Shown in pieces: positions 8,650 to 35,081 of a stretch of 35,981 nucleotides of DNA (positions within the stretch are counted from its first letter, which is position 1; every line of letters begins with the position of its first letter). The stretch is from a virus. Taxonomy: Duplodnaviria; Heunggongvirae; Uroviricota; Caudoviricetes. The DNA lies in IMG/VR virus record IMGVR_UViG_2563366990_000012, positions 1-35,981 of that record. One strand, given 5' to 3'. Below the pieces are notes generated by a model. That model worked only from the letters and a program-made list of their open reading frames with translations, searched no databases and was not told where the DNA came from. A program made the position numbers and the translations under genes.

Positions 8650-9093
8650 ATGTTAGATATCAGAATGTCACGACCATCTGAAGCATCAGAGATCATACAA
8701 ATCTGGAAGAGTTCAGTGGATGCTACCCACGACTTTCTTACAGGTCATGACCGACAAGAAATCGAAAAAGAAGTTATCGGCTTTTTCTCAGAAACTCCTG
8801 TATGGGTTGCAACAAATCAGGATGACCAACCGCTAGGATTTATGTTTTTGCATGAGGGGCATCTGGAGGCACTTTTTGTAGCAGGCTCTGCTCGCGGACT
8901 TGGCGTCGGAAAACGTTTGATATCTCATGCACTGGCGCTGCATCCAGAGCTAAGCGTTGATGTAAATGAACAAAACCAGCAGGCTGTAGGGTTTTATCAG
9001 CATATGGGTTTTCAGGTATCAGGGCGTTCCGATCTGGATAATCAGGGAAGGCCATACCCCTTGTTGCATCTGAGAATGGCCAATAACATGTAA
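8650..9093 (+). CDS. GNAT-family N-acetyltransferase, 147 aa (cargo at the Z/fun position)
   Basis: Acetyl-CoA binding motif region ...EALFVAGSARGLGVGKRLISHAL... and QQAVGFYQHMGF typical of GNAT folds; about 40% GC versus about 55% for the backbone. Confidence 0.75.
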   Translation: MLDIRMSRPSEASEIIQIWKSSVDATHDFLTGHDRQEIEKEVIGFFSETPVWVATNQDDQPLGFMFLHEGHLEALFVAGSARGLGVGKRLISHALALHPELSVDVNEQNQQAVGFYQHMGFQVSGRSDLDNQGRPYPLLHLRMANNM

Positions 9094-9113: not shown

Positions 9114-9698
9114 TCATTGATTTTTTTGGCTAAAAGCCACGATGTAAGAACAGCTCTGCTCACTATCTGGATTGCTCATTTGGTACTCGCTTGCAAAGGT
9201 AAGGGCAAGACAGTCACCGGCACGTAAATGATGGGTCTGATTTTTGACTCGAAAATCAAGGCTGCCACTCATCATCCAAAGCGTTTGCCCGGAAAGATGC
9301 TCATTTGCGGAGGCGGGTATCGTCAGCTCACCCATTGCAGGGATTTCAACTTTGATCAGTTCCGGGCATGCCCCCGCAGGAGACAAAGACCAACGGGTGA
9401 TGCCTGATTGCTCATCCGTCCAGTGCTGTTGCTGATGAGCAAAACGAACCAGGGAATTCTGATGTTGCTCAAGCTCTGCAAAGAGTTTAGATAGCGTTAC
9501 ATTCATGGCGTTGGCCAGGCGGCTAAGGATAGTTGCACTAGGGCTGGAGATGCCTCGTTCAATCTTACTAATCATGGCCTGACTGACGCCCGATCGTTGA
9601 GCAAGCTCTGTTACAGTCAAATTGCGAGCCTTCCTGTGTTTAAGCAATAAACGTGCAATATCGCTATCTACTATCTGATTTTTAAATTTTTTATCCAT
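9114..9698 (-). CDS. XRE-family HTH transcriptional regulator with C-terminal cupin domain, 194 aa
   Basis: N-terminal HTH LLKHRKARNLTVTELAQRSGVSQAMISKIERG plus a C-terminal cupin-like segment. Start trimmed to MDKKFKNQ, which is preceded by GAGAGGG. Confidence 0.75.
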   Translation of the reverse strand: MDKKFKNQIVDSDIARLLLKHRKARNLTVTELAQRSGVSQAMISKIERGISSPSATILSRLANAMNVTLSKLFAELEQHQNSLVRFAHQQQHWTDEQSGITRWSLSPAGACPELIKVEIPAMGELTIPASANEHLSGQTLWMMSGSLDFRVKNQTHHLRAGDCLALTFASEYQMSNPDSEQSCSYIVAFSQKNQ

Positions 9699-9933
9699 TT
9701 CCGCCCTCTCTTTCACCAACCTGATTATGCCATTACATAAATTGGCCTGAAATAAATGATTTTGTAAGTCTGTAAATTCACTACTCCTAAGCGCGGCACT
9801 TCGTTTATACGCACCTATAACCTTAAAATATGAGTTGGTAAGCTTAACGTCCGCTTTTGGCACATAGCGGACTGTCAGATTAGGCTTTACTCTGTGCTAT
9901 AGATATGTAAGCTCACACCAGAGATCATACAAC

Positions 9934-15019: not shown

Positions 15020-15805
15020 ATGTTCAGTGATAATGTGATTAATGCGTGGTGGTTTATCTCTTTGTATCTATTTTTATTAATAGCATTAACATTTGTTACC
15101 TTTGGTAAAAGTAATCTTATGAGGTTTATTGCACATCATTTCAATCTTGAGTATTCAGACAGAAAGTTAAAAATGCTCGACAAAAAATGGCGCGACATTC
15201 AACTATTTAAAACAATTAACGGAATCAATGTATCAGGCATCGAAGATGTGAGAATGATACAGCAGGGGCTGATTGATGGAAAACTAAAAACATCGTATTT
15301 TTTCCTTACTCGCTTCTGGGGTGACATAACAAAACCACCACACATAATTAAAACAATAATTGTAATTCTGGCCAGTATTATTTATATTCTCTTCGCATGT
15401 TATATACACAACAAACAATCCGCTATAGTAAGAGATGCCATAGGCATACCATATAAAAATATGATGTACTATGTTTATAGTGACAAAGTTCTTTTATCCT
15501 TCAAAAATAAAACAGTTGAACTTAATAAAACTTATAGCCTTGCCGATTGCAAGACCCTGCAAAACGTATTTATAAAAGACACACTTCCTGAAATCGCCTG
15601 CAATAAGCTCTTACAGCTAAACGAGGAGGACTCCGAATGGTTAAGTCAGGAGATTAAAGATAATAACAGCCACAAAAAAGCATTATTAATACTATCCCTC
15701 GTCTATTTCATTTCAGGCCTGCTTATATTCCTGTCATATACAAAATTCCTTTACGCCAATAAGAAGGTTTTAGAATACAAAGCATCAAATAAAAACCACT
15801 CATAA
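15020..15805 (+). CDS. AT-rich predicted membrane protein, 261 aa, at the P2 orf30 position between V and S
   Basis: AGGAGA 5 nt upstream of ATG; three hydrophobic segments (AWWFISLYLFLLIALTFVTF, IIKTIIVILASIIYILFACYI, ALLILSLVYFISGLLIFLSY); about 28-30% GC; opposite strand to flanking late genes. Confidence 0.7.
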   Translation: MFSDNVINAWWFISLYLFLLIALTFVTFGKSNLMRFIAHHFNLEYSDRKLKMLDKKWRDIQLFKTINGINVSGIEDVRMIQQGLIDGKLKTSYFFLTRFWGDITKPPHIIKTIIVILASIIYILFACYIHNKQSAIVRDAIGIPYKNMMYYVYSDKVLLSFKNKTVELNKTYSLADCKTLQNVFIKDTLPEIACNKLLQLNEEDSEWLSQEIKDNNSHKKALLILSLVYFISGLLIFLSYTKFLYANKKVLEYKASNKNHS

Positions 15806-22077: not shown

Positions 22078-22250
22078 TGTCAGGAGTCCTGAATAGTGAT
22101 TAGAGGAGTCACATGTCGGCATCAGTTTCCCGACGATGCGCATCCTCCGCCATCAGTCCCGGATGGCTTATCACTGACACAACAGCACCTTAGCGAATCG
22201 CGGGACGCGACTCAGTAGCCTTGCCGTGTATTTATCACGGCGAGGTATTC
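22078..22250. promoter_or_regulatory. Divergent late promoter region (PO leftward for O-N-M-L-X-lysis-R-S; PP rightward for P-Q), expected Ogr-dependent
   Basis: Intergenic region between divergent O and P genes; assignment from P2 organisation. I did not identify an exact TGT-N12-ACA Ogr element. Confidence 0.5.
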
Positions 22251-24023
22251 ATGACCATCACCACAGACACCACTCTTTTACACGACCCGCGTCGTCAGGC
22301 GGCGCTGCTGTACTGGCAGGGATTTTCCGTGCCGCAGATTGCCGCCATGTTGCAGATGAAACGCCCGACGGTGCAGAGCTGGAAACAGCGCGACGGCTGG
22401 GACAGCGTTGCCCCCATCAGCCGTGTCGAAATGAGTCTGGAAGCGCGGCTGACCCAGCTCATCATCAAACCGCAGAAAACCGGCGGGGACTTCAAGGAAA
22501 TTGACCTGCTGGGACGCCAGATTGAACGACTGGCACGGGTCAACCGTTACAGCCAGACCGGCAACGAGGCAGACCTTAATCCGAACATTGCTAACCGCAA
22601 CAAAGGTGGGCGTCGCAAACCGAAAAAGAATTTTTTCAGTGACGAAGCCATCGAAAAGCTGGAGCAGATTTTCTTTGAGCAGTCTTTCGACTATCAGTTG
22701 CACTGGTATCGCGCCGGGCTTGAGCACCGCATCCGCGATATCCTGAAATCCCGCCAGATTGGCGCGACGTTTTATTTTTCCCGCGAGGCGCTGCTGCGCG
22801 CCCTGAAAACCGGTCATAACCAGATTTTTCTGTCGGCCAGTAAAACGCAGGCGTATGTGTTCCGCGAATACATCATCGCCTTTGCCCGGCTGGTTGACGT
22901 TGACCTGACCGGTGACCCGATTGTCCTGGGCAATAACGGCGCAAAACTGATTTTTCTCGGCACCAACTCCAACACCGCACAGAGCCATAACGGCGACCTG
23001 TACGTCGACGAGATTTTCTGGATCCCGAATTTTCAGGTACTGCGTAAGGTGGCATCAGGTATGGCCTCACAGAGTCACCTGCGTTCGACCTATTTCTCCA
23101 CCCCGTCCACGCTGGCGCACGACGCCTACCCGTTCTGGTCGGGTGAACTGTTTAACCGGGGACGCGCCAGCGCCGCCGAACGCGTGGAAATCGACGTCAG
23201 TCATAACGCCCTTGCCGGTGGACTTCTCTGTGCGGACGGCCAGTGGCGGCAGATTGTCACCATTGAGGACGCCCTGAAAGGCGGCTGCACGCTGTTCGAC
23301 ATTGAGCAGCTCAAACGCGAAAACAGCGCCGACGATTTTAAAAACCTGTTCATGTGTGAATTTGTTGACGACAAGGCGTCGGTGTTCCCGTTCGAGGAGC
23401 TGCAACGCTGCATGGTCGACACGCTGGAAGAATGGGAAGACTATGCGCCGTTTGCCGCGAATCCGTTCGGCTCCCGCCCGGTATGGATTGGTTACGACCC
23501 GTCACACCGTGGCGACAGCGCCGGATGCGTGGTACTGGCACCGCCGGTGGTGGCCGGTGGCAAATTCAGAATACTTGAGCGTCACCAGTGGAAAGGCATG
23601 GACTTTGCCACTCAGGCTGAATCCATCCGCAAACTCACCGAGAAATACAACGTCGAATACATCGGTATTGATGCCACCGGCCTCGGTGTCGGCGTGTTCC
23701 AGCTCGTGCGCTCGTTCTATCCCGCCGCACGCGACATCCGCTACACGCCGGAAATGAAAACCGCAATGGTGCTCAAGGCAAAAGACGTCATCCGCCGTGG
23801 CTGTCTGGAATATGACGTCAGCGCCACCGACATCACCAGCTCGTTTATGGCTATCCGCAAGACCATGACCAGCAGCGGACGCAGCGCCACCTATGAGGCC
23901 AGCCGCAGCGAGGAAGCCAGCCACGCCGACCTCGCCTGGGCGACCATGCACGCCCTGTTAAATGAGCCACTCACCGCCGGTATCAGCACCCCGCTGACAT
24001 CCACCATTCTGGAGTTTTACTGA
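22251..24023 (+). CDS. P: Terminase large (ATPase) subunit gpP, 590 aa
   Basis: MTITTDTTLLHDPRRQAALLYWQGFSV...; track ORF trimmed by 10 codons to the P2 P length. Confidence 0.92.
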   Translation: MTITTDTTLLHDPRRQAALLYWQGFSVPQIAAMLQMKRPTVQSWKQRDGWDSVAPISRVEMSLEARLTQLIIKPQKTGGDFKEIDLLGRQIERLARVNRYSQTGNEADLNPNIANRNKGGRRKPKKNFFSDEAIEKLEQIFFEQSFDYQLHWYRAGLEHRIRDILKSRQIGATFYFSREALLRALKTGHNQIFLSASKTQAYVFREYIIAFARLVDVDLTGDPIVLGNNGAKLIFLGTNSNTAQSHNGDLYVDEIFWIPNFQVLRKVASGMASQSHLRSTYFSTPSTLAHDAYPFWSGELFNRGRASAAERVEIDVSHNALAGGLLCADGQWRQIVTIEDALKGGCTLFDIEQLKRENSADDFKNLFMCEFVDDKASVFPFEELQRCMVDTLEEWEDYAPFAANPFGSRPVWIGYDPSHRGDSAGCVVLAPPVVAGGKFRILERHQWKGMDFATQAESIRKLTEKYNVEYIGIDATGLGVGVFQLVRSFYPAARDIRYTPEMKTAMVLKAKDVIRRGCLEYDVSATDITSSFMAIRKTMTSSGRSATYEASRSEEASHADLAWATMHALLNEPLTAGISTPLTSTILEFY

Positions 24024-25057
24024 TGAGCAAGAAAAAAGGGAAAACACCGCGACCAGCGGCAAAAACAATGACCGCCAGCGCCCCGAAAATGGAGGCATTC
24101 ACCTTTGGTGAGCCGGTGCCGGTACTCGACCGCCGTGACATTCTGGATTACGTCGAGTGCATCAGTAACGGCAGATGGTATGAGCCACCGGTCAGCTTTA
24201 CCGGTCTGGCAAAAAGCCTGCGTGCTGCCGTGCATCACAGCTCACCGATTTACGTCAAACGCAATATTCTGGCCTCAACATTTATCCCGCATCCGTGGCT
24301 TTCGCAACAGGATTTCAGCCGCTTTGTGCTGGATTTTCTGGTGTTCGGTAATGCGTTTCTGGAAAAGCGCTACAGCACCACCGGTAAGGTCATCAGACTG
24401 GAAACATCACCGGCAAAATATACCCGCCGTGGTGTTGAGGAGGATGTTTACTGGTGGGTGCCGTCCTTCAACGAGCCGACACCTTTCGCGCCCGGCTCCG
24501 TGTTTCACCTGCTGGAGCCGGATATTAATCAGGAGCTGTACGGCCTGCCGGAATATCTCAGCGCCCTTAACTCTGCCTGGCTGAATGAGTCGGCCACGCT
24601 GTTCCGCCGCAAGTATTACGAAAACGGCGCGCATGCCGGATACATCATGTACGTCACCGATGCCGTGCAGGATCGCAACGATATCGAAATGCTTCGCGAA
24701 AACATGGTGAAGTCGAAAGGCCGCAATAACTTTAAAAATCTGTTTCTCTATGCCCCACAGGGGAAAGCCGACGGCATTAAAATTATCCCGCTCAGTGAAG
24801 TGGCAACGAAGGACGATTTTTTTAATATCAAAAAAGCCAGCGCCGCTGACCTGCTGGACGCGCACCGCATCCCCTTTCAGTTGATGGGCGGCAAGCCGGA
24901 GAACGTCGGGTCGCTGGGTGATATTGAGAAAGTGGCAAAGGTCTTTGTCCGCAATGAGCTTATCCCGTTACAGGACAGGATCCGCGAGATAAACGGCTGG
25001 CTCGGTCAGGAGGTCATCCGCTTTAAAAACTACTCACTGGACACTGACAACGACTGA
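24023..25057 (+). CDS. Q: Portal (capsid vertex) protein gpQ, 344 aa
   Basis: Start overlaps the P stop (ATGA); length equals P2 Q. Confidence 0.92.
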   Translation: MSKKKGKTPRPAAKTMTASAPKMEAFTFGEPVPVLDRRDILDYVECISNGRWYEPPVSFTGLAKSLRAAVHHSSPIYVKRNILASTFIPHPWLSQQDFSRFVLDFLVFGNAFLEKRYSTTGKVIRLETSPAKYTRRGVEEDVYWWVPSFNEPTPFAPGSVFHLLEPDINQELYGLPEYLSALNSAWLNESATLFRRKYYENGAHAGYIMYVTDAVQDRNDIEMLRENMVKSKGRNNFKNLFLYAPQGKADGIKIIPLSEVATKDDFFNIKKASAADLLDAHRIPFQLMGGKPENVGSLGDIEKVAKVFVRNELIPLQDRIREINGWLGQEVIRFKNYSLDTDND

Positions 25058-25062
25058 ACATC

Positions 25063-25084
25063 GCCGCCTGCGGGCGGCTTTTTT
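25063..25084 (+). terminator. Rho-independent terminator after Q
   Basis: Hairpin GCCGCCTGCGGGCGGC followed by TTTTTT. Confidence 0.75.
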
Positions 25085-25226
25085 ACACCCCGTCATCACG
25101 CCCTCACACGCTCACCACCGCACAAAACACCCCGCAGACACACCAACGCCTCAACGGGCAGACTAAGCGCCGTCACGACGCGCTCAGACGCTGAAAAAAT
25201 AAAATCAGCACCACCGCCAGCGCGCA

Positions 25227-25245
25227 GTGCTTTCCCCGCCTCGCC
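25227..25245. other. P2-type cos site (19-nt cohesive end sequence GGCGAGGCGGGGAAAGCAC, present here as its reverse complement)
   Basis: Exact match to the P2 cohesive end as I recall it, in the expected place between the Q-proximal end and the old/tin-position cargo. Confidence 0.8.
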
Positions 25246-25392
25246 CGCCCGCTTCATGCAGGGCTTTAAATGCAGTGCAGCAGTAATGGTTAGAATGCGC
25301 CAGCACTGATGTTAGATACCAGAACTGGCATTTAAAAATGAATGCAAATAAATGCACCAAACTAATTACTTACTGACAAAAAATAAGTAAAA

Positions 25393-26277
25393 TCAGGCGC
25401 AAGTTGGCATTGAGACCCCTTTCAGGGTATTAGGAATAATTATTTCAGGAGAAAAAATCATCACTTCCTCTCCAGATTTTTTGAGATGCGCTGTATATTG
25501 CAATGAATACTCAACTTGCGGAAATCCATTATAAATATCTTTAATTTCCTTAGCGTTATCATAAGAAACAAGCCAATTTGGGAAATTAATTTCTGTGAGT
25601 TTCTTCATAACCAATACATGGTCATCATGCTCATAAAAATTCCTGTAAAGCCCTTGCCCTTTAATATAGTAAGGAGGATCCAAATACAAAAGAATTTTAT
25701 TTTTATCCACCTTTCCCATATTATCCATAAAATTCAAGGCATCAAGAAAATCCAAAGCATCCAGATTAGTTACTACTATTCTTTGATTATAATTTGCTAT
25801 CTTCTCAATTCTTGAAATTAAATCCGCCCTGTTAAAGCGAACATCCATTTTCCATTTTCCATTTTGTGATTTCCCGCCTATAACCCCCGCCTTGAGAATA
25901 CCTGAACGATTTGTTCTATTTAAGAAAAACGCAGCAAAGCCAACCTCAAGCTTAGTAAACTCAGAAGGATTCGAAATAACATAGCGATGAAAAGACCATT
26001 CATCCATATCTATCTTTGCTCGGCTAATAAGTCGGCAAAGCTCATCAGTATCACTAACAACAGATGACCAAAAAGAATAAACAGCAAAATCTGCATCATT
26101 TATATAGATTTTACGGACATACTCTTCCAATAATAATTCTAAAGCCACCCCTGCACCACCAGCGTAAGGTTCTGCATATGCTCCATCATTCAACGAGTTT
26201 TTTTCAATAACATCTTTTAAAAAGTAAGATAACTTACCTTTCCCGCCGGGGTATCTTAATGGAGTATAAAATTTCAT
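25393..26277 (-). CDS. Dam-family (alpha-class, D12-like) N6-adenine DNA methyltransferase, 294 aa
   Basis: N-terminal PLRYPGGK and SAM-binding EPYAGGAGV motifs, catalytic DPPY (LLYLDPPYYIKG) near the C-terminus; GAGG 6 nt upstream of ATG; about 33% GC. Confidence 0.85.
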   Translation of the reverse strand: MKFYTPLRYPGGKGKLSYFLKDVIEKNSLNDGAYAEPYAGGAGVALELLLEEYVRKIYINDADFAVYSFWSSVVSDTDELCRLISRAKIDMDEWSFHRYVISNPSEFTKLEVGFAAFFLNRTNRSGILKAGVIGGKSQNGKWKMDVRFNRADLISRIEKIANYNQRIVVTNLDALDFLDALNFMDNMGKVDKNKILLYLDPPYYIKGQGLYRNFYEHDDHVLVMKKLTEINFPNWLVSYDNAKEIKDIYNGFPQVEYSLQYTAHLKKSGEEVMIFSPEIIIPNTLKGVSMPTCA

Positions 26278-26314
26278 AAATCCCTCTCATTCCTGATTTT
26301 GTAGTTTATCAGTT

Positions 26315-26332
26315 TCTGGACATCCATGTCCA
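26315..26332. promoter_or_regulatory. Perfect palindrome CTGGACAT-CC-ATGTCCAG between the ParB-like gene and the methyltransferase gene
   Basis: 8-bp arms and 2-bp centre in the 70-bp intergenic spacer; candidate operator or attenuator hairpin. Confidence 0.5.
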
Positions 26333-26346
26333 GATGTAGACAAATC

Positions 26347-27852
26347 TCACTCACTCCAAATAAGGCTTAATAACAACTCAAAGTTATCCCACTCAGTGTT
26401 GACAGCCTCTTTTGAGGGAATTAAGTGTGGGTTATGTACATACTGCTGCAATGAACCATCATGTTTAGTTATTTGGCTCGAGAAAGTTATTACAGCCGTA
26501 CATTGACTCCCCGTCATCTTTTTATTTTCCCGAAGGAAATTAGCACACATTTTAACCTTATCATGAAGCCCTGGAGTTCTATGTGGTTCCTTAAATTGTA
26601 ACTTGTTTTCTTCAACAAAAGTGCTTACAGAGAGATCTATAAATATTCTCAACAATATTGAGATAGCATTAGGGGTGTTATCAAATGTCAGATGCGACTT
26701 AAGCTCATTAAATATTCTAGAGCATTTCTTATGCCCTCTAAAATTAAATTTCACATAAGATGGCACCAACACATTACGATCTACTTTAGGAGGAGTTTTT
26801 CCCTTGTTTTTATTCTGTTCCGTACCCGAAACTTTAGATTTACTCTCTTCTGTGCCTACATGTCTAGAATAATCATCTTCCTGTTTATCCACACCTGTAT
26901 TCTTTAAGGCATCACCTTCTGAAAGACCTACTTTCTTTACACTCACAGATGCATCATTTTTGTCAATAGAATCATGTTTTTTCTCTGTAAGAAAAGATTT
27001 AGGCTCCAGTAAACTCCACGGCTTATCTAAAAGAGATTCTGAAGGTTTTATTTTTTGTTCAATAATAAATGTAACCCTGTCATCTTGGCTACGAATCCTA
27101 TTAACAGTAAAACAAGCCTTACCTTTATCATCCTCTTCAATCATTACATCTAAAATATTTTTTAATTGTGCACAAAAACGTTCATAAGGCTGATATGAGT
27201 ATAGAACTCCATTAATGCTTTTTAAATTAAAATAATCCCTCACCTTTAAATCACCAAAAAGACGCGTGATGTTTGTGATTTTTAAAAGTCTTTTTTTAGC
27301 AATTATCTCTTTATATAAATCAGTATTGAACTCTATAAATGTAAGTATTTGATTACCAAATGACTGCTTACCCATCCTAGCCAGATGTCGTGCTTTTTCT
27401 GTTGCAGTCCATTCAACTCTTCCAACTCCAGCATTTTGACCAGTATGCTTTAAATTGACCCAATGCTCATATTCATCATCGTCAAAAAGAACGCAGTTAT
27501 CTATAACATTAATATCTTTAAGCTGAGTAATCTTAAGTTTTTCAAAAGCTTTCCGTGCTTTTTCTGTTGGTGCAAGTCTAGGAGAGTGTAAAAGTTTAAG
27601 GGCTGTAACTCGACGATTACCTTCAGCAACGACGAAAAACCCAGATTCCTCTTCACTAGGATAAACTAATATGTTTTCAGACGGATCTAAACCTTTCGAA
27701 GCAATATCTTTAGCCAAGCGATAAATGCGGTCGTACTGCAAGTCAAGCATCTTGGCAATAGCATCACGCTGATTTTCTGCTGACGTCGGGAAACGAGGGT
27801 TATCAACATCCAAAAGTAACTTATTGATATTCATTGATTTTAGTTGATTCAT
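26347..27852 (-). CDS. ParB/Sulfiredoxin-like domain protein with a large uncharacterised C-terminal region, ~501 aa
   Basis: N-terminal ParB-like motif (LLDVDNPRFP ... FFVVAEGNRRVTALKLL), Lys/Glu-rich low-complexity linker, about 170-aa C-terminal domain. Start placed at MNQLKS, 7 nt after AGAGGA; the ORF could start up to 27921. Confidence 0.7.
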   Translation of the reverse strand: MNQLKSMNINKLLLDVDNPRFPTSAENQRDAIAKMLDLQYDRIYRLAKDIASKGLDPSENILVYPSEEESGFFVVAEGNRRVTALKLLHSPRLAPTEKARKAFEKLKITQLKDINVIDNCVLFDDDEYEHWVNLKHTGQNAGVGRVEWTATEKARHLARMGKQSFGNQILTFIEFNTDLYKEIIAKKRLLKITNITRLFGDLKVRDYFNLKSINGVLYSYQPYERFCAQLKNILDVMIEEDDKGKACFTVNRIRSQDDRVTFIIEQKIKPSESLLDKPWSLLEPKSFLTEKKHDSIDKNDASVSVKKVGLSEGDALKNTGVDKQEDDYSRHVGTEESKSKVSGTEQNKNKGKTPPKVDRNVLVPSYVKFNFRGHKKCSRIFNELKSHLTFDNTPNAISILLRIFIDLSVSTFVEENKLQFKEPHRTPGLHDKVKMCANFLRENKKMTGSQCTAVITFSSQITKHDGSLQQYVHNPHLIPSKEAVNTEWDNFELLLSLIWSE

Positions 27853-27873
27853 CAACATATCCTCTGTTGAATC

Positions 27874-27906
27874 TTTATGATAAAAATTAATTATTTTTAT
27901 CATAAA
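27874..27906. promoter_or_regulatory. 33-bp inverted repeat (13-bp perfect arms TTTATGATAAAAA / TTTTTATCATAAA) in the 5' leader of the ParB-like gene
   Basis: Read directly from the sequence; centred about 35 bp upstream of the preferred start codon. Confidence 0.55.
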
Positions 27907-28208
27907 TGATAGCGTAAACATAGTCTTATGAACGACATCAGCCCTGAAGCTTCAAAACTATCATTTACGTTTGCGAGGCACCATCTATCACATTGATTTA
28001 TAATAAGTATCTTTATCTTCACTGCATTGCTCTCAAAAAATCACATAGATGGAAATTCCCCGTTGACACACTCCCAAGTGATGCAGATACATTTCAAGTG
28101 CTTCATACACATGATAACGGCTATCCCCCTAAATTCTGTGCGTTTCTTTTCCCTCCAGCACAAGGTTGAAATATCTTGCGTGCAGCTTTACTTTGTGAAT
28201 CTTTGTCA

Positions 28209-30494
28209 TTATATCCGCGCCATTACTGTTGAGAATCCCGGCCACTCATCAGCGACCGGGTACGTGAATTTTTTCCCGTCATAATTTACGGTCGCGCCAC
28301 GCGCCAGCGCCTCAAGCTCCCATCGCTGCGGCCTGATACCGTTCTGAGCAAGGTCAACGCGGATACGGGTAATTTGCATTCTTTCCGACCGGGTCAGTCT
28401 GGCCGATGGTGCAATTTCATGTGGTTTTAACGGGCTTCCGTTTCTCTGCTGACGATTTGGGGTTCTCAGCCCGTATTTTAATGCGCCCCTGAGCGCCCTC
28501 ACGACCTCCGGGTCATTCCATTCGATAACACCGTCATCAACCAGATTAAGCACTGCTGCGGCGTGTTCAGAAGGTGTGGGAGCCGGTAACGAAGTATCAC
28601 CACCGGTGAGCTTTCCACAGTTATTGACAGGACTCCGAGGCGCGGCGATGCCGCTTTTTAAAGTCAAAGGCTGAACGACCGGAACTTTCGGCACAATGCG
28701 CCAGTCCGTCGTTCTGGTGATACGAATATGACGCGCGCCGAGATGCGGCGCGTAAATGCCGACCACTCTCTCGACCTCTTCCTCGTACTCGTTAACGTCA
28801 TCCGAGGGGCTACGGGCGACCCTGACAGTCTGGCAATCGCGCGGGACATTTGCCCCACCCTGCGCGCTGATATACAGCGCAAAATCGCCACTGTCTGCGG
28901 CAGCGCGTGCAGCCTCGACGCGTTCGTCAAACTCATCAGCAATGCTGACGCCGCGAGGCAATTTGCGTAGTTCACGGTAAGCCCCCATTGTCGGCAGGCC
29001 AACCGTTTTAAATTGAGGAATGCGCCACGTTGACGCCCATGCGGTAACAGCCGCGGCAGTGTCTTTCAGCGGCCTGCCGGTGTCGTTATCGAGCTGACCA
29101 TCCAGTGCATAGCCATCGATGTTTTTTGAAATGTATTTCGCGATATATCCCGCAGCACCGCCCCGGTTAAGGTGTTTTGCCTGAAAACGGTTTCGCGCGG
29201 CTCCTCTTTCGTCGCCATCCTCTTTGAGCGCGTAGCGACGCATGATTTCGATAATCTGATTACGCTGGCGTGGATTACAAAAAAGCATCATATGCCAGTG
29301 CGGCGTTCCGTCGTGGTGTGGCTCGACGACACGCAAACCGTAGACCTGTAAATCATTATCCTTGAATGCCGTGCGCATCAGGCTCCAGATGCGGCAGAGA
29401 TAACGCTGCGCATCCTTTGGATTAAATGCCTCATCGTTCCAGCCGTGATTAAGCTGCACGGTTTTACTTTCGCCTTTTCCGACCTGACGTGTCGGGTGAT
29501 ACTTTGACGGTGCGGTCAGCGTGATAAACATCCCCACATCGCCCTCTGCGGCGGCGTAACGCTCAATACCGGCAATGGTGTTCATCAGCTCCATCCGGCG
29601 AATTTCAGGATTAGAAATACTGCCCATCACCTTACTGATAAGGTCGATGCGCTCGCCGGTTTCCCTGTTTTCGAGGTCACACGATTTAAGAAATTCCAGA
29701 TTTGCCTGGCGGCGCGCACGCACATCACGAATGGCATGTTTACTGGCATAAGGAGAACGGTCTTTATTGACCTCCCCGACAGCAATCAGTAACGCCTCAT
29801 GCCAGCGCATACGCTGGCCTTTAAGCTGACTAATCCACCACTCATCGTTAAACAGACGGGCAATGGCAGAATATGCCTGCCTCGTGGTCATCTGCCCTTT
29901 ACGGTATTTTTTCCAGTAGAGCGGGGAAATATTGAAAGCACGTGCAGCGCCAGCGACATGACCATACAGGTGAGTCTGCGCCTCATCCGTAAACAGCGAT
30001 TCTTTTTCGCCATGTGCATCCACCCAGGCATCGCAGAGTTCCTCATACATCATGAAAAGCTGCGATGAGATACGGGCGGCAAACTTTTTCAGCTCCTTGT
30101 CATTCATTCCAGGCAGGCGCGCATAATGGTCACGCTCTGCCAGAAACAGCAACGACGCGTCGGTGTTCATTTCATGGCGCTGATTCACGCGCTCAATGCG
30201 CGGCCATAAACGACGCTGAAAAGTGGATGTGAGGAAATAAAACCCGTGCACCGGGCTTTTATTGCGCCGGATGTAGTCATAACGTGAAGTAAACAGCGAG
30301 CGCAAAAAGTAAGGCAGGCGGTTAATCGTGGATAAAACACCTTGCACCTGACGCATCTCGTCACGTGTAAGGGGTCTTTCGCGCCCGACAGCCTCGCGTG
30401 GCGCGTTCCATGCATAAGCACCGGTAATCGCCTTACCGGTGCCTGCGGCAAATGCTGACGGAGGGACAAAACGCCCGGAGGCTTTAACGGCCAT
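28209..30494 (-). CDS. A: Replication initiation protein gpA (rolling-circle nicking endonuclease), 761 aa
   Basis: MAVKASGRFVPPSAFAAGTGK... with HUH-type endonuclease region (PHWHMMLF) and active-site tyrosine region (GYIAKYISKNIDGY); track ORF trimmed by 14 codons. Confidence 0.92.
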   Translation of the reverse strand: MAVKASGRFVPPSAFAAGTGKAITGAYAWNAPREAVGRERPLTRDEMRQVQGVLSTINRLPYFLRSLFTSRYDYIRRNKSPVHGFYFLTSTFQRRLWPRIERVNQRHEMNTDASLLFLAERDHYARLPGMNDKELKKFAARISSQLFMMYEELCDAWVDAHGEKESLFTDEAQTHLYGHVAGAARAFNISPLYWKKYRKGQMTTRQAYSAIARLFNDEWWISQLKGQRMRWHEALLIAVGEVNKDRSPYASKHAIRDVRARRQANLEFLKSCDLENRETGERIDLISKVMGSISNPEIRRMELMNTIAGIERYAAAEGDVGMFITLTAPSKYHPTRQVGKGESKTVQLNHGWNDEAFNPKDAQRYLCRIWSLMRTAFKDNDLQVYGLRVVEPHHDGTPHWHMMLFCNPRQRNQIIEIMRRYALKEDGDERGAARNRFQAKHLNRGGAAGYIAKYISKNIDGYALDGQLDNDTGRPLKDTAAAVTAWASTWRIPQFKTVGLPTMGAYRELRKLPRGVSIADEFDERVEAARAAADSGDFALYISAQGGANVPRDCQTVRVARSPSDDVNEYEEEVERVVGIYAPHLGARHIRITRTTDWRIVPKVPVVQPLTLKSGIAAPRSPVNNCGKLTGGDTSLPAPTPSEHAAAVLNLVDDGVIEWNDPEVVRALRGALKYGLRTPNRQQRNGSPLKPHEIAPSARLTRSERMQITRIRVDLAQNGIRPQRWELEALARGATVNYDGKKFTYPVADEWPGFSTVMARI

Positions 30495-30759
30495 ATGAGC
30501 CAAAAGCCTCAGAACAACGCTTGCTGAGTTGCTCAACCTGCGCGTTTAAATCAGCAAAAGACTTTGCGCTTCCGGTCAGAATATCGTGATGCATCAGGCC
30601 GGAAACGAGCTGGCTTAATTTCGGGTAATAACCAACCACCGCCAGCCATTCCTGCCCGGCGTTTTTACCGCTTTCCGCTCTCTTTTTCTCGTGGAGAATA
30701 AACTGAAAGCTGTCACTGGTAACGACATAACGTTCGCCAATTTCGATACGAATACTCAT
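30484..30759 (-). CDS. Hypothetical early protein (P2 orf83 position), 91 aa
   Basis: Compact ORF directly upstream of A, overlapping stop/start junctions with neighbours. Confidence 0.6.
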   Translation of the reverse strand: MSIRIEIGERYVVTSDSFQFILHEKKRAESGKNAGQEWLAVVGYYPKLSQLVSGLMHHDILTGSAKSFADLNAQVEQLSKRCSEAFGSYGR

Positions 30760-34667: not shown

Positions 34668-35081
34668 CTCACCTTCCCCCATTAAATACCAACGACACGC
34701 TCTGGTGTTTAAATATAATAATGGCATGATTATTATAATTGAATAGGATTATAATAAATGTTCTGTACAACATTTCCTACATAAGTAGGAATTACATACA
34801 CGGATGCCCTTCCAGGTAACCCCATGGGGGGGTTAATATATTTTTAATAGTATATTGAAGATGCCACTGTTTAGTTGAATATTAGGTATATGTTCTTTTT
34901 TGAAATTTACCGGTGGCTACCGTTAATATTCGCTGTTCCCATTGCAAGCTCCTGGTGGTAACCACTGAATCCTCCATACTTGAACTGACTTTTTATCCTC
35001 CGACTTTCATCCTGTTCTGACTCCACCTTTTCTTTTCTGCTCTACACTATCTACAGTCCAATCATAAAGGCACATACGATC

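Follow-up and report, generated by a model that had tools for sequence, protein, structure and literature searches.

How does a defence cassette that encodes a toxic effector and a protective methylase keep the methylase ahead, especially when the P2-like phage that carries it enters a naive cell? This question is raised by a 35,981-nucleotide (nt) stretch of viral DNA, positions 1 to 35,981 of IMG/VR record IMGVR_UViG_2563366990_000012 (hereafter the window), in which a P2-like prophage carries two minus-strand genes, effector A and then methylase B, whose profile matches identify them as PD-lambda-5, a known two-gene anti-phage system. An earlier reading of the sequence, referred to here as the original prediction, had picked out two inverted repeats as candidate control sites, one in the leader of gene A (P1) and one in the spacer before gene B (P2). 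Both repeats exist, with small corrections to their limits. We found that they are different things, each lying on one predicted promoter of the cassette. P2 is a selected element whose symmetry has been kept through compensatory change, and the perfect form of P1 is confined to one near-clonal, recent Escherichia coli lineage.

A covarying dyad in the effector–methylase spacer

The spacer between the two genes is 69 nt long (26278–26346), one less than the 70 bp first given, and P2 does lie within it. The original prediction described P2 as an 8-2-8 palindrome at 26315..26332. The palindrome is real, but its arms are 9 nt long around a 2-nt centre (26315..26334; TCTGGACAT/CC/ATGTCCAGA), and the 18-mer that had been named, CTGGACATCCATGTCCAG, sits at 26316–26333, one position from where it had been placed. 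P2 begins 12 nt past the A stop codon. An arm of 9 nt or longer arose in 7 of 2,000 shuffles of its own 69-nt spacer and, anywhere in the sequence, in 100 of 500 shuffles of the AT-rich island that holds the cassette. Because arm length alone is this common island-wide, the significance of P2 rests on its position and conservation. As RNA, P2 is predicted to form an 8-bp stem with four G:C pairs and a 4-nt loop (free energy, −10.6 kcal/mol), and the 41-nt fold at this place has a z-score of −4.0.

For comparison we assembled 178 related loci: 80 from species-representative genomes, 80 from viral contigs, 6 from metagenomes and 12 from an exact-protein look-up. Nearly all of the 80 genome loci, which range from Proteobacteria to Bacteroidota, Firmicutes and even archaeal metagenome-assembled genomes, have gene A followed by gene B, and the spacers between them fall into two sizes, 0–25 nt or 50–100 nt. 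One 75-kb viral contig (IMGVR_UViG_3300034072_002256; loci L103 and L104) carries two A–B pairs at a distance of about 39 kb, and both pairs have a 15-nt spacer. Close relatives of the window cassette gave a spacer alignment (A2) of 18 distinct enterobacterial-clade sequences, with identities of 66–78% for A and 71–89% for B.

In this alignment, 89.4% of the cells of the P2 dyad are paired, compared with 82.9 ± 1.5% after shuffling (0 of 500 shuffles reached the observed value) and 23–54% when the partner is slid by one to three columns. The changes that maintain this pairing can be followed at single positions: pair 21–34 is GC in 4 sequences, GU in 8 and AU in 6, and is never unpaired, and pair 19–36 is CG in 8 and AU in 6. 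Some relatives have lengthened the dyad to 12-2-12, as in AAACATAGACAT GG ATGTCTATGTTT. The 3′ arm, which lies in the spacer of the promoter described below, is partly invariant, and its conservation there has no explanation other than the dyad. The anatomy, conservation and covariation are direct observations.

The rest of the spacer is conserved in the manner of a promoter. A promoter scan placed a −35 box, TGGACA, at 26327..26332 (minus strand), in the core of the 5′ arm of P2; T-GACA is invariant in the alignment, with TGGACA or TAGACA in 18 of 18 sequences. An extended −10 element, TGaTAAACT (26303..26311, minus strand), lies 18 nt past the −35, which leaves 25 nt to the B start codon, and its TG, TA and final T are invariant in all 18 relatives. 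Invariant positions also include the ribosome-binding site, where the Shine–Dalgarno sequence of gene B, GAGAGGG (26282..26288, minus strand), forms a conserved block. This pattern is the one expected of an extended −10 sigma-70 promoter for the methylase (P_B), which we predict to start transcription near 26296.

The putative promoter extends well beyond the close relatives. We counted motifs over all 64 distinct long spacers, taking expectations from shuffles. TGnTAnnnT was present in 42 of them, compared with 8.3 ± 2.6 in shuffles, and 30 had both a −35 at the right distance and an extended −10, compared with 0.2. The hexamer TGG[AC]CA occurred in 34 spacers, with 1.4 expected. Distant clades almost always have the palindromic, non-consensus form TGGCCA as the −35 of P_B, mostly exactly 17 nt before TGnTAnnnT, and this form is found across several phyla (L003–L010, L023, L035, L080, L119 and others).

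Homologues at 36–60% identity in A have palindromes at the place of P2 that are unrelated to it in sequence and are often stronger. These include arms of 12 nt around a 6-nt loop (L093), 10 around 8 (L094), 19 around 12 (L102) and 9 around 10 (L004), as well as a group with arms of 9–10 nt and loops of 3–7 nt (L011–L013) that has a CTCGC core in common and perfectly compensated flanks. Spacer inverted repeats as a class are enriched, with 16 of the 64 long spacers reaching p ≤ 0.01, and in every clade the dyads lie 2–15 nt past the A stop codon. Palindromes with arms in the range of 9–19 nt stand at this place in L004/L096, L111 and L113/L116 too; in some loci they overlap the −35, and in L111, L113 and L116 they bracket the −10.

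Several further features of the spacer were considered. A small second dyad, CTGAT-N10-ATCAG (26293..26312, minus strand), brackets the −10 hexamer of P_B and appears as a helix in the RNAalifold consensus (columns 40–44/55–59), with an outer pair that is CG in 2 sequences, UG in 7 and UA in 8. This dyad is weak, and the promoter already constrains its left half. An outer RNA helix that would hide the ribosome-binding site of B was present in the single-sequence fold and absent from the consensus fold. A scan of 25000–28400 against Rfam (E ≤ 1) returned two sub-threshold chance matches, neither at a palindrome. On the plus strand, the TGGACA of P2 was rejected as part of an antisense promoter: the candidate −10, ACAAAT, 17 nt on, is not conserved, and the promoter scan listed no plus-strand site there. 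Most close relatives have a GATC (Dam site) near the predicted methylase start (columns 54–57 of the spacer alignment), where the window has AATC (about 26293–26297).

The leader palindrome and a predicted effector promoter

Whether P1 lies in a leader at all depends on where gene A begins. The longest open reading frame (ORF), of 524 amino acids (aa), starts at ATG 27921 and would place P1 within coding sequence. Three observations identify ATG 27852 as the true start: the match to the PADLOC profiles sets in at residue 24 of the long frame, PGAP annotation puts the start at 27852, and this ATG is the only one kept in an alignment of 17 sequences from upstream of A (A3), in which relatives have GTG, not ATG, at the in-frame position 27858. 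A Shine–Dalgarno sequence, AGAGGA (27860..27865, minus strand), stands 7 nt before ATG 27852, and in the same alignment the ACAGAGGAT block that contains it is invariant or nearly so. The 524-aa ORF is an artefact of an open upstream frame (27853–27921) and should not serve as the gene model. The description of P1 as a leader element is correct only because A starts at 27852 and not at 27921. A 40-aa ORF at 27900–28022, which overlaps P1, was rejected as a hidden regulator; its sequence is implausible and not conserved, and it looks non-coding.

P1 occupies 27874..27906, as originally reported, and ends 21 nt from the A start codon. Its arms had been given as 13 bp; they are perfect arms of 14 nt around a 5-nt loop (TTTATGATAAAAAT/TAATT/ATTTTTATCATAAA), and the 13-7-13 version is nested within this repeat. 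It consists of A and T only, plus one G:C pair per arm. P1 is the longest perfect inverted repeat of the whole window, and an arm of 14 nt was seen in 0 of 2,000 dinucleotide shuffles of the 198-nt intergenic region and in 0 of 500 shuffles of the island.

Within the left arm lies TATGAT (27899..27904, minus strand), the predicted −10 of a promoter for A (P_A). In the upstream alignment its A-11, T-10, G-9 and T-7 are invariant and its T-12 is nearly so, amid variable DNA, and the left arm thereby holds an element common to all relatives, TTATGATA(A/G)AAA. The −35 region is poor (AAGACT). Transcription from P_A is predicted to start at about 27892, in the loop of P1. Transcripts that begin there would therefore carry the right arm only, and no RNA hairpin would be possible at P1. 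Any effect of P1 would then be exerted at the DNA level, for example through a mirror-image −10 that lowers the output of P_A or through binding of a factor.

The right arm has a different history. P1 is identical in 22 of 22 complete E. coli genomes that have the cassette, and these copies therefore represent one recent lineage; one viral contig has P1 with a single mismatch. E. coli NCTC9008 and EC6563 are examples of strains with the identical cassette. In the closest relatives the right arm reads TTTTGACCATAAA, in which 10 of 12 positions match, and in others fewer do, making a quasi-palindrome. Inverted repeats upstream of A showed no excess across 115 related loci: 8 reached p ≤ 0.05, and two of these are the E. 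coli copies. P1 is not a conserved feature of PD-lambda-5. Clustered changes that all raise complementarity to the other arm are the signature of quasi-palindrome ‘correction’ by template switching, and the right arm of P1 is plausibly a lineage-specific perfecting of an older quasi-palindrome by this route.

Further features lie at or near P1. The half-site ATGATA/TATCAT occurs in four copies, P1 included, within about 95 nt upstream of A; the extra copies, TAAATGATAG (27903–27912) and CTATCATTTA (27958–27967), make a perfect inverted repeat of 10 nt with 45 nt between them, and the distal one is beyond the upstream part that is common to relatives. A plus-strand promoter-like site spans 27852–27881, with TCAACA over the A start codon, an 18-nt gap and a TATGAT supplied by the right arm of P1 (9 of 12 positions matching).

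Weighing a stem-loop against an operator

What, then, do the palindromes do? We rank a stem-loop acting in cis first and a protein operator second, an order in which we have only moderate confidence. In the first explanation, the P2 dyad would act as an RNA stem-loop that uncouples effector and methylase expression, and P1 would combine the −10 of a weak promoter, in its left arm, with a perfected right arm; we hold this as a tentative preference, a little short of an even chance. Read-through transcripts from P_A would fold into a stem-loop 12 nt past the A stop codon, at which the A message would meet a 3′ barrier or a weak stop. Most of the methylase would come from P_B, the −35 box of which would double as the 5′ arm of the dyad while the 3′ arm lies in the promoter spacer, and the methylase level would be uncoupled from that of the toxic effector. 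The earlier suggestion that P2 sets the ratio of effector, or nuclease, to methylase agrees with both the conservation of the internal methylase promoter and the covariation of the dyad. A regulatory role for both palindromes, as originally proposed, is reasonable in that both overlap predicted promoters, although the leader palindrome lacks the conservation seen in the spacer. A hairpin is preferred to a conserved protein site because homologous proteins would be expected to keep the spacing of their half-sites, and the geometry of the spacer dyads varies. In addition, allowing G·U pairs on the sense strand lengthens stems from 4–6 to 9–12 in eight relatives, and allowing A·C almost never lengthens them. 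The placement of the dyads 2–15 nt past the A stop codon in every clade counts for a hairpin too, as does the lack of a recognisable DNA-reading domain in the cassette. A deeply conserved, predicted methylase promoter within a symmetric dyad would give testable control points for the effector-to-methylase ratio, namely the starts near 27892 and 26296 and the stem-loop at 26315–26334, which should be useful to anyone cloning or dissecting PD-lambda-5.

Several observations weigh against the stem-loop. TGGCCA is retained as the −35 of P_B without any hairpin in many distant loci, hinting at a DNA-level constraint, and a strong hairpin is missing in about 40% of the long-spacer homologues that have the promoter. 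All of the dyads overlap or touch the methylase promoter, an arrangement for which an operator would account too. Over all clades the stem mismatches comprise four G·T, two A·C and three others, a strand bias that is not significant; the mismatches are suggestive of RNA in the close clade and do not prove RNA over DNA. P2 has no U-tract after its stem (the tail is AACTGATAA, with 2 T in the next 9 nt), and at least five T follow the hairpin in 4 of 25 strong spacer hairpins of relatives, so these are not canonical intrinsic terminators. The shuffle control for the dyad ignores phylogeny, and 18 distinct close sequences enter the comparison. For P1, selection for an operator could account just as well for a 14-of-14 perfect match placed on a promoter. 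Separately, a canonical intrinsic terminator was rejected as an identity for P2, which lacks the U-tract and was not listed by a terminator scan.

The second-ranked explanation is that protein A and/or B binds one or both palindromes and represses P_A at its −10 and start, P_B at its −35, or both, in feedback resembling that of controller (C) proteins, SsoII or KorB. We consider this unlikely, yet weighty enough to be taken seriously. Both dyads overlap core promoter elements, P2 has half-sites whose centres are 11 bp apart, close to one helical turn, and has retained its symmetry through compensatory changes, the dyads of other clades always keep to the B promoter, and four ATGATA half-sites cluster around P1. 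However, the cassette has no small regulator gene: 25393–27852 holds only the two genes, with no small helix-turn-helix (HTH) controller among them. No sequence-specific DNA-binding domain is recognisable in A or B, and B has no extra DNA-binding domain or N-terminal extension, its D12 domain beginning at residue 9 of 294. Homologous systems have dyads of widely differing geometry, P1 is not conserved, and a repressor made by the cassette could not delay effector expression in a new host. The two palindromes have no sequence in common, which makes it unlikely that one protein binds both. A narrower version, in which effector A, a ParB/Srx–HEPN protein, binds or loads at P2 and perhaps P1 through an unrecognised DNA-reading surface, like the cytidine triphosphate (CTP)-switch repressor KorB, strikes us as improbable. 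If it were true, the effector level would feed back on methylase transcription without a C protein; a restriction-like defence would then have a control circuit of a new kind, and there would be a first clue to what PD-lambda-5 A recognises.

A parS-like site, raised originally and considered here as the loading site of a ParB-type CTP clamp, is the least credible of the explanations. Protein A has an N-terminal ParB/Srx fold with an arginine-rich box, and its EGNRRVTA motif resembles the ParB GxxRxxA box; parS sites often adjoin parB genes. At either palindrome, however, the best match to TGTTNCACGTGAAACA covers 8 of 15 specified positions, below many chance sites of the window, no ParB-type HTH was found after the N-domain of protein A, and the half-sites do not recur in the rest of the window more often than chance predicts. 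Consensus scans of both palindromes for parS, the KorB operator, the SsoII operator, IHF and Fur gave nothing above window-wide chance, and extra P1 or P2 half-sites across the window were at chance level. Among the rejected identities, a KorB operator matched at 7–8 of 13 positions and a Fur site at 13 of 19, with 15 other window positions as high or higher.

P_B might instead be sensitive to methylation, as in CfrBI, where the promoter overlap region is controlled by a methylated site (PMC12707154): P2 would hold the target of B, and methylation at the −35 would tune P_B to methylase activity. In the close clade the dyad core GACATGGATGTC never varies, the palindromic −35 TGGCCA is conserved in many distant loci, and methylase B appears to be active, judging from the mrr-deleted host needed for the system (PMC9519451). 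Against this, arms of 9–19 bp far exceed the length of a Type II target, a short target does not explain the compensatory changes of the outer arm, and a review describes the mechanism as rarely used (PMC12707154). We therefore give this explanation a low probability. An equally low one attaches to the proposal that P1 is a mirror-image promoter, in which the plus-strand TATGAT, together with TCAACA, faces P_A and lowers effector expression. The promoter scan does list the plus-strand site at 27852–27881 (9 of 12), its predicted start falls within about 4 nt of that of P_A, a weaker TATGGT stands at the same place in some relatives, and EcoRI and Eco29kI are known to have reverse promoters by which nuclease expression is damped (PMC12707154). 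The site is nevertheless a consensus match only, from a scan that found 12 sites where 10.9 were expected by chance, and the L090 clade lacks the reverse −10.

Finally, both palindromes might be functionless, P1 as a neutral product of quasi-palindrome correction and P2 as a chance repeat. P1 is perfect only in a near-clonal lineage, and 20% of island shuffles contain a 9-nt arm somewhere. For P2, covariation and positional conservation across clades argue strongly against chance, and we regard the joint explanation as very improbable. P1 may be neutral, which is already part of the favoured stem-loop explanation.

The cassette and its known counterparts

The cassette forms an AT-rich island of 2.7 kb (2.66 kb as shuffled above), with a GC content of about 0.33–0.37 compared with about 0.55 in the flanks. 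On one side lie the terminase (22221–24023, plus strand) and portal (24023–25057, plus strand) genes, and on the other the replication endonuclease gene gpA (28209–30536, minus strand). A remnant of P2 orf91 (DUF3850, ASCH; about 28128–28209) lies directly upstream of the cassette and is a frameshifted partial pseudogene according to the annotation of an identical E. coli record. The position between gpA and the portal gene is the P2 defence hotspot, at which Vassallo et al. (2022) described defence systems (PMC9519451). Gene A (26347..27852, minus strand) encodes 501 aa laid out as an N-domain with the ParB/Srx fold, a middle domain of unassigned fold and, after a disordered linker, a HEPN-like C-domain; it matches PADLOC PD-Lambda-5_A with E = 6.3e-168 over profile positions 1–465 of 466. 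Gene B (25393..26277, minus strand) encodes a 294-aa Dam-like D12-class N6-adenine DNA methyltransferase, which matches Pfam PF02086 (E = 3.6e-16, residues 9–255) and PADLOC PD-Lambda-5_B (E = 1.4e-121) and falls below the cut-off for TIGR00571 (dam subfamily).

Three other places in the window drew attention. A second sharp AT-rich island (15020–15805, plus strand; GC 0.33) lies among tail and baseplate genes and holds a 261-aa ORF, unmatched in Pfam and PADLOC, that may be the cargo of another P2 hotspot. The AT-rich segment 8650–9863 contains a GNAT acetyltransferase ORF (8650–9093, plus strand) convergent with a 249-aa Xre-type HTH ORF (9114–9863, minus strand). The latter matches the HTH of RmrA/CapH-like models, and the two could be a toxin–antitoxin or regulator pair. 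At 34714–34757, just beyond the integrase gene and near the expected prophage end or attachment site, there are two overlapping AT-only inverted repeats with arms of 9–10 nt (TATAATAATGGCATGATTATTATA, TTATTATAATTGAATAGGATTATAATAA).

PD-lambda-5 was cloned with its own promoter, required an mrr-deleted host, which suggests that its methylase is active, and was termed a compacted ‘RM+Abi’ (restriction–modification (RM) plus abortive infection) system; its protection against phages is unusually broad, a resistance shown for the system and not for this copy (PMC9519451). The window cassette has the same gene order and hotspot and matches both profiles, and its genes show no difference from the described system; the paper on that system is silent on its promoters, on the spacer dyad and on the leader palindrome (PMC9519451). 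Our literature search found no paper on the regulation or mechanism of PD-lambda-5.

Measured against known control elements, membership among parS sites, C-boxes, SsoII-type operators and intrinsic terminators each fails on at least one defining feature. The operators of RM systems (C-boxes, SsoII/Ecl18kI, CfrBI) likewise have a palindrome over the methylase −35, and the GGACA/TGTCC of P2 recalls the SsoII operator, but here there is neither a C gene nor an HTH fused to the methylase, and the spacing does not fit the SsoII operator, which the spacer dyad matches at 7 of 15 positions. KorB operators differ in a consensus that is unmatched here and in the DNA-binding domain of their protein, for which no counterpart was identified in the cassette. 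With intercistronic stem-loops and terminators, P2 has in common a stable stem-loop 12 nt past a stop codon, compensatory changes and unrelated hairpins in distant homologues; it differs in its missing U-tract, which is rare in relatives too, and in overlapping the next promoter. What we describe is ordinary gene-control anatomy and not a new kind of element or principle. EcoRI and Eco29kI place the nuclease gene ahead of the methylase gene; the methylase has a promoter of its own in addition to the bicistronic mRNA, and its transcript thereby becomes more abundant than that of the nuclease (PMC12707154). The PD-lambda-5 cassette resembles them in its effector gene before the methylase and its predicted separate methylase promoter. 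It differs in that the effector is a ParB/Srx–HEPN protein and not a PD-(D/E)xK nuclease, in that the dyad showed no conserved reverse (antisense) promoter, and in that P_B lies within a covarying dyad in a 69-nt spacer, whereas the methylase promoters of EcoRI and Eco29kI lie inside the upstream gene.

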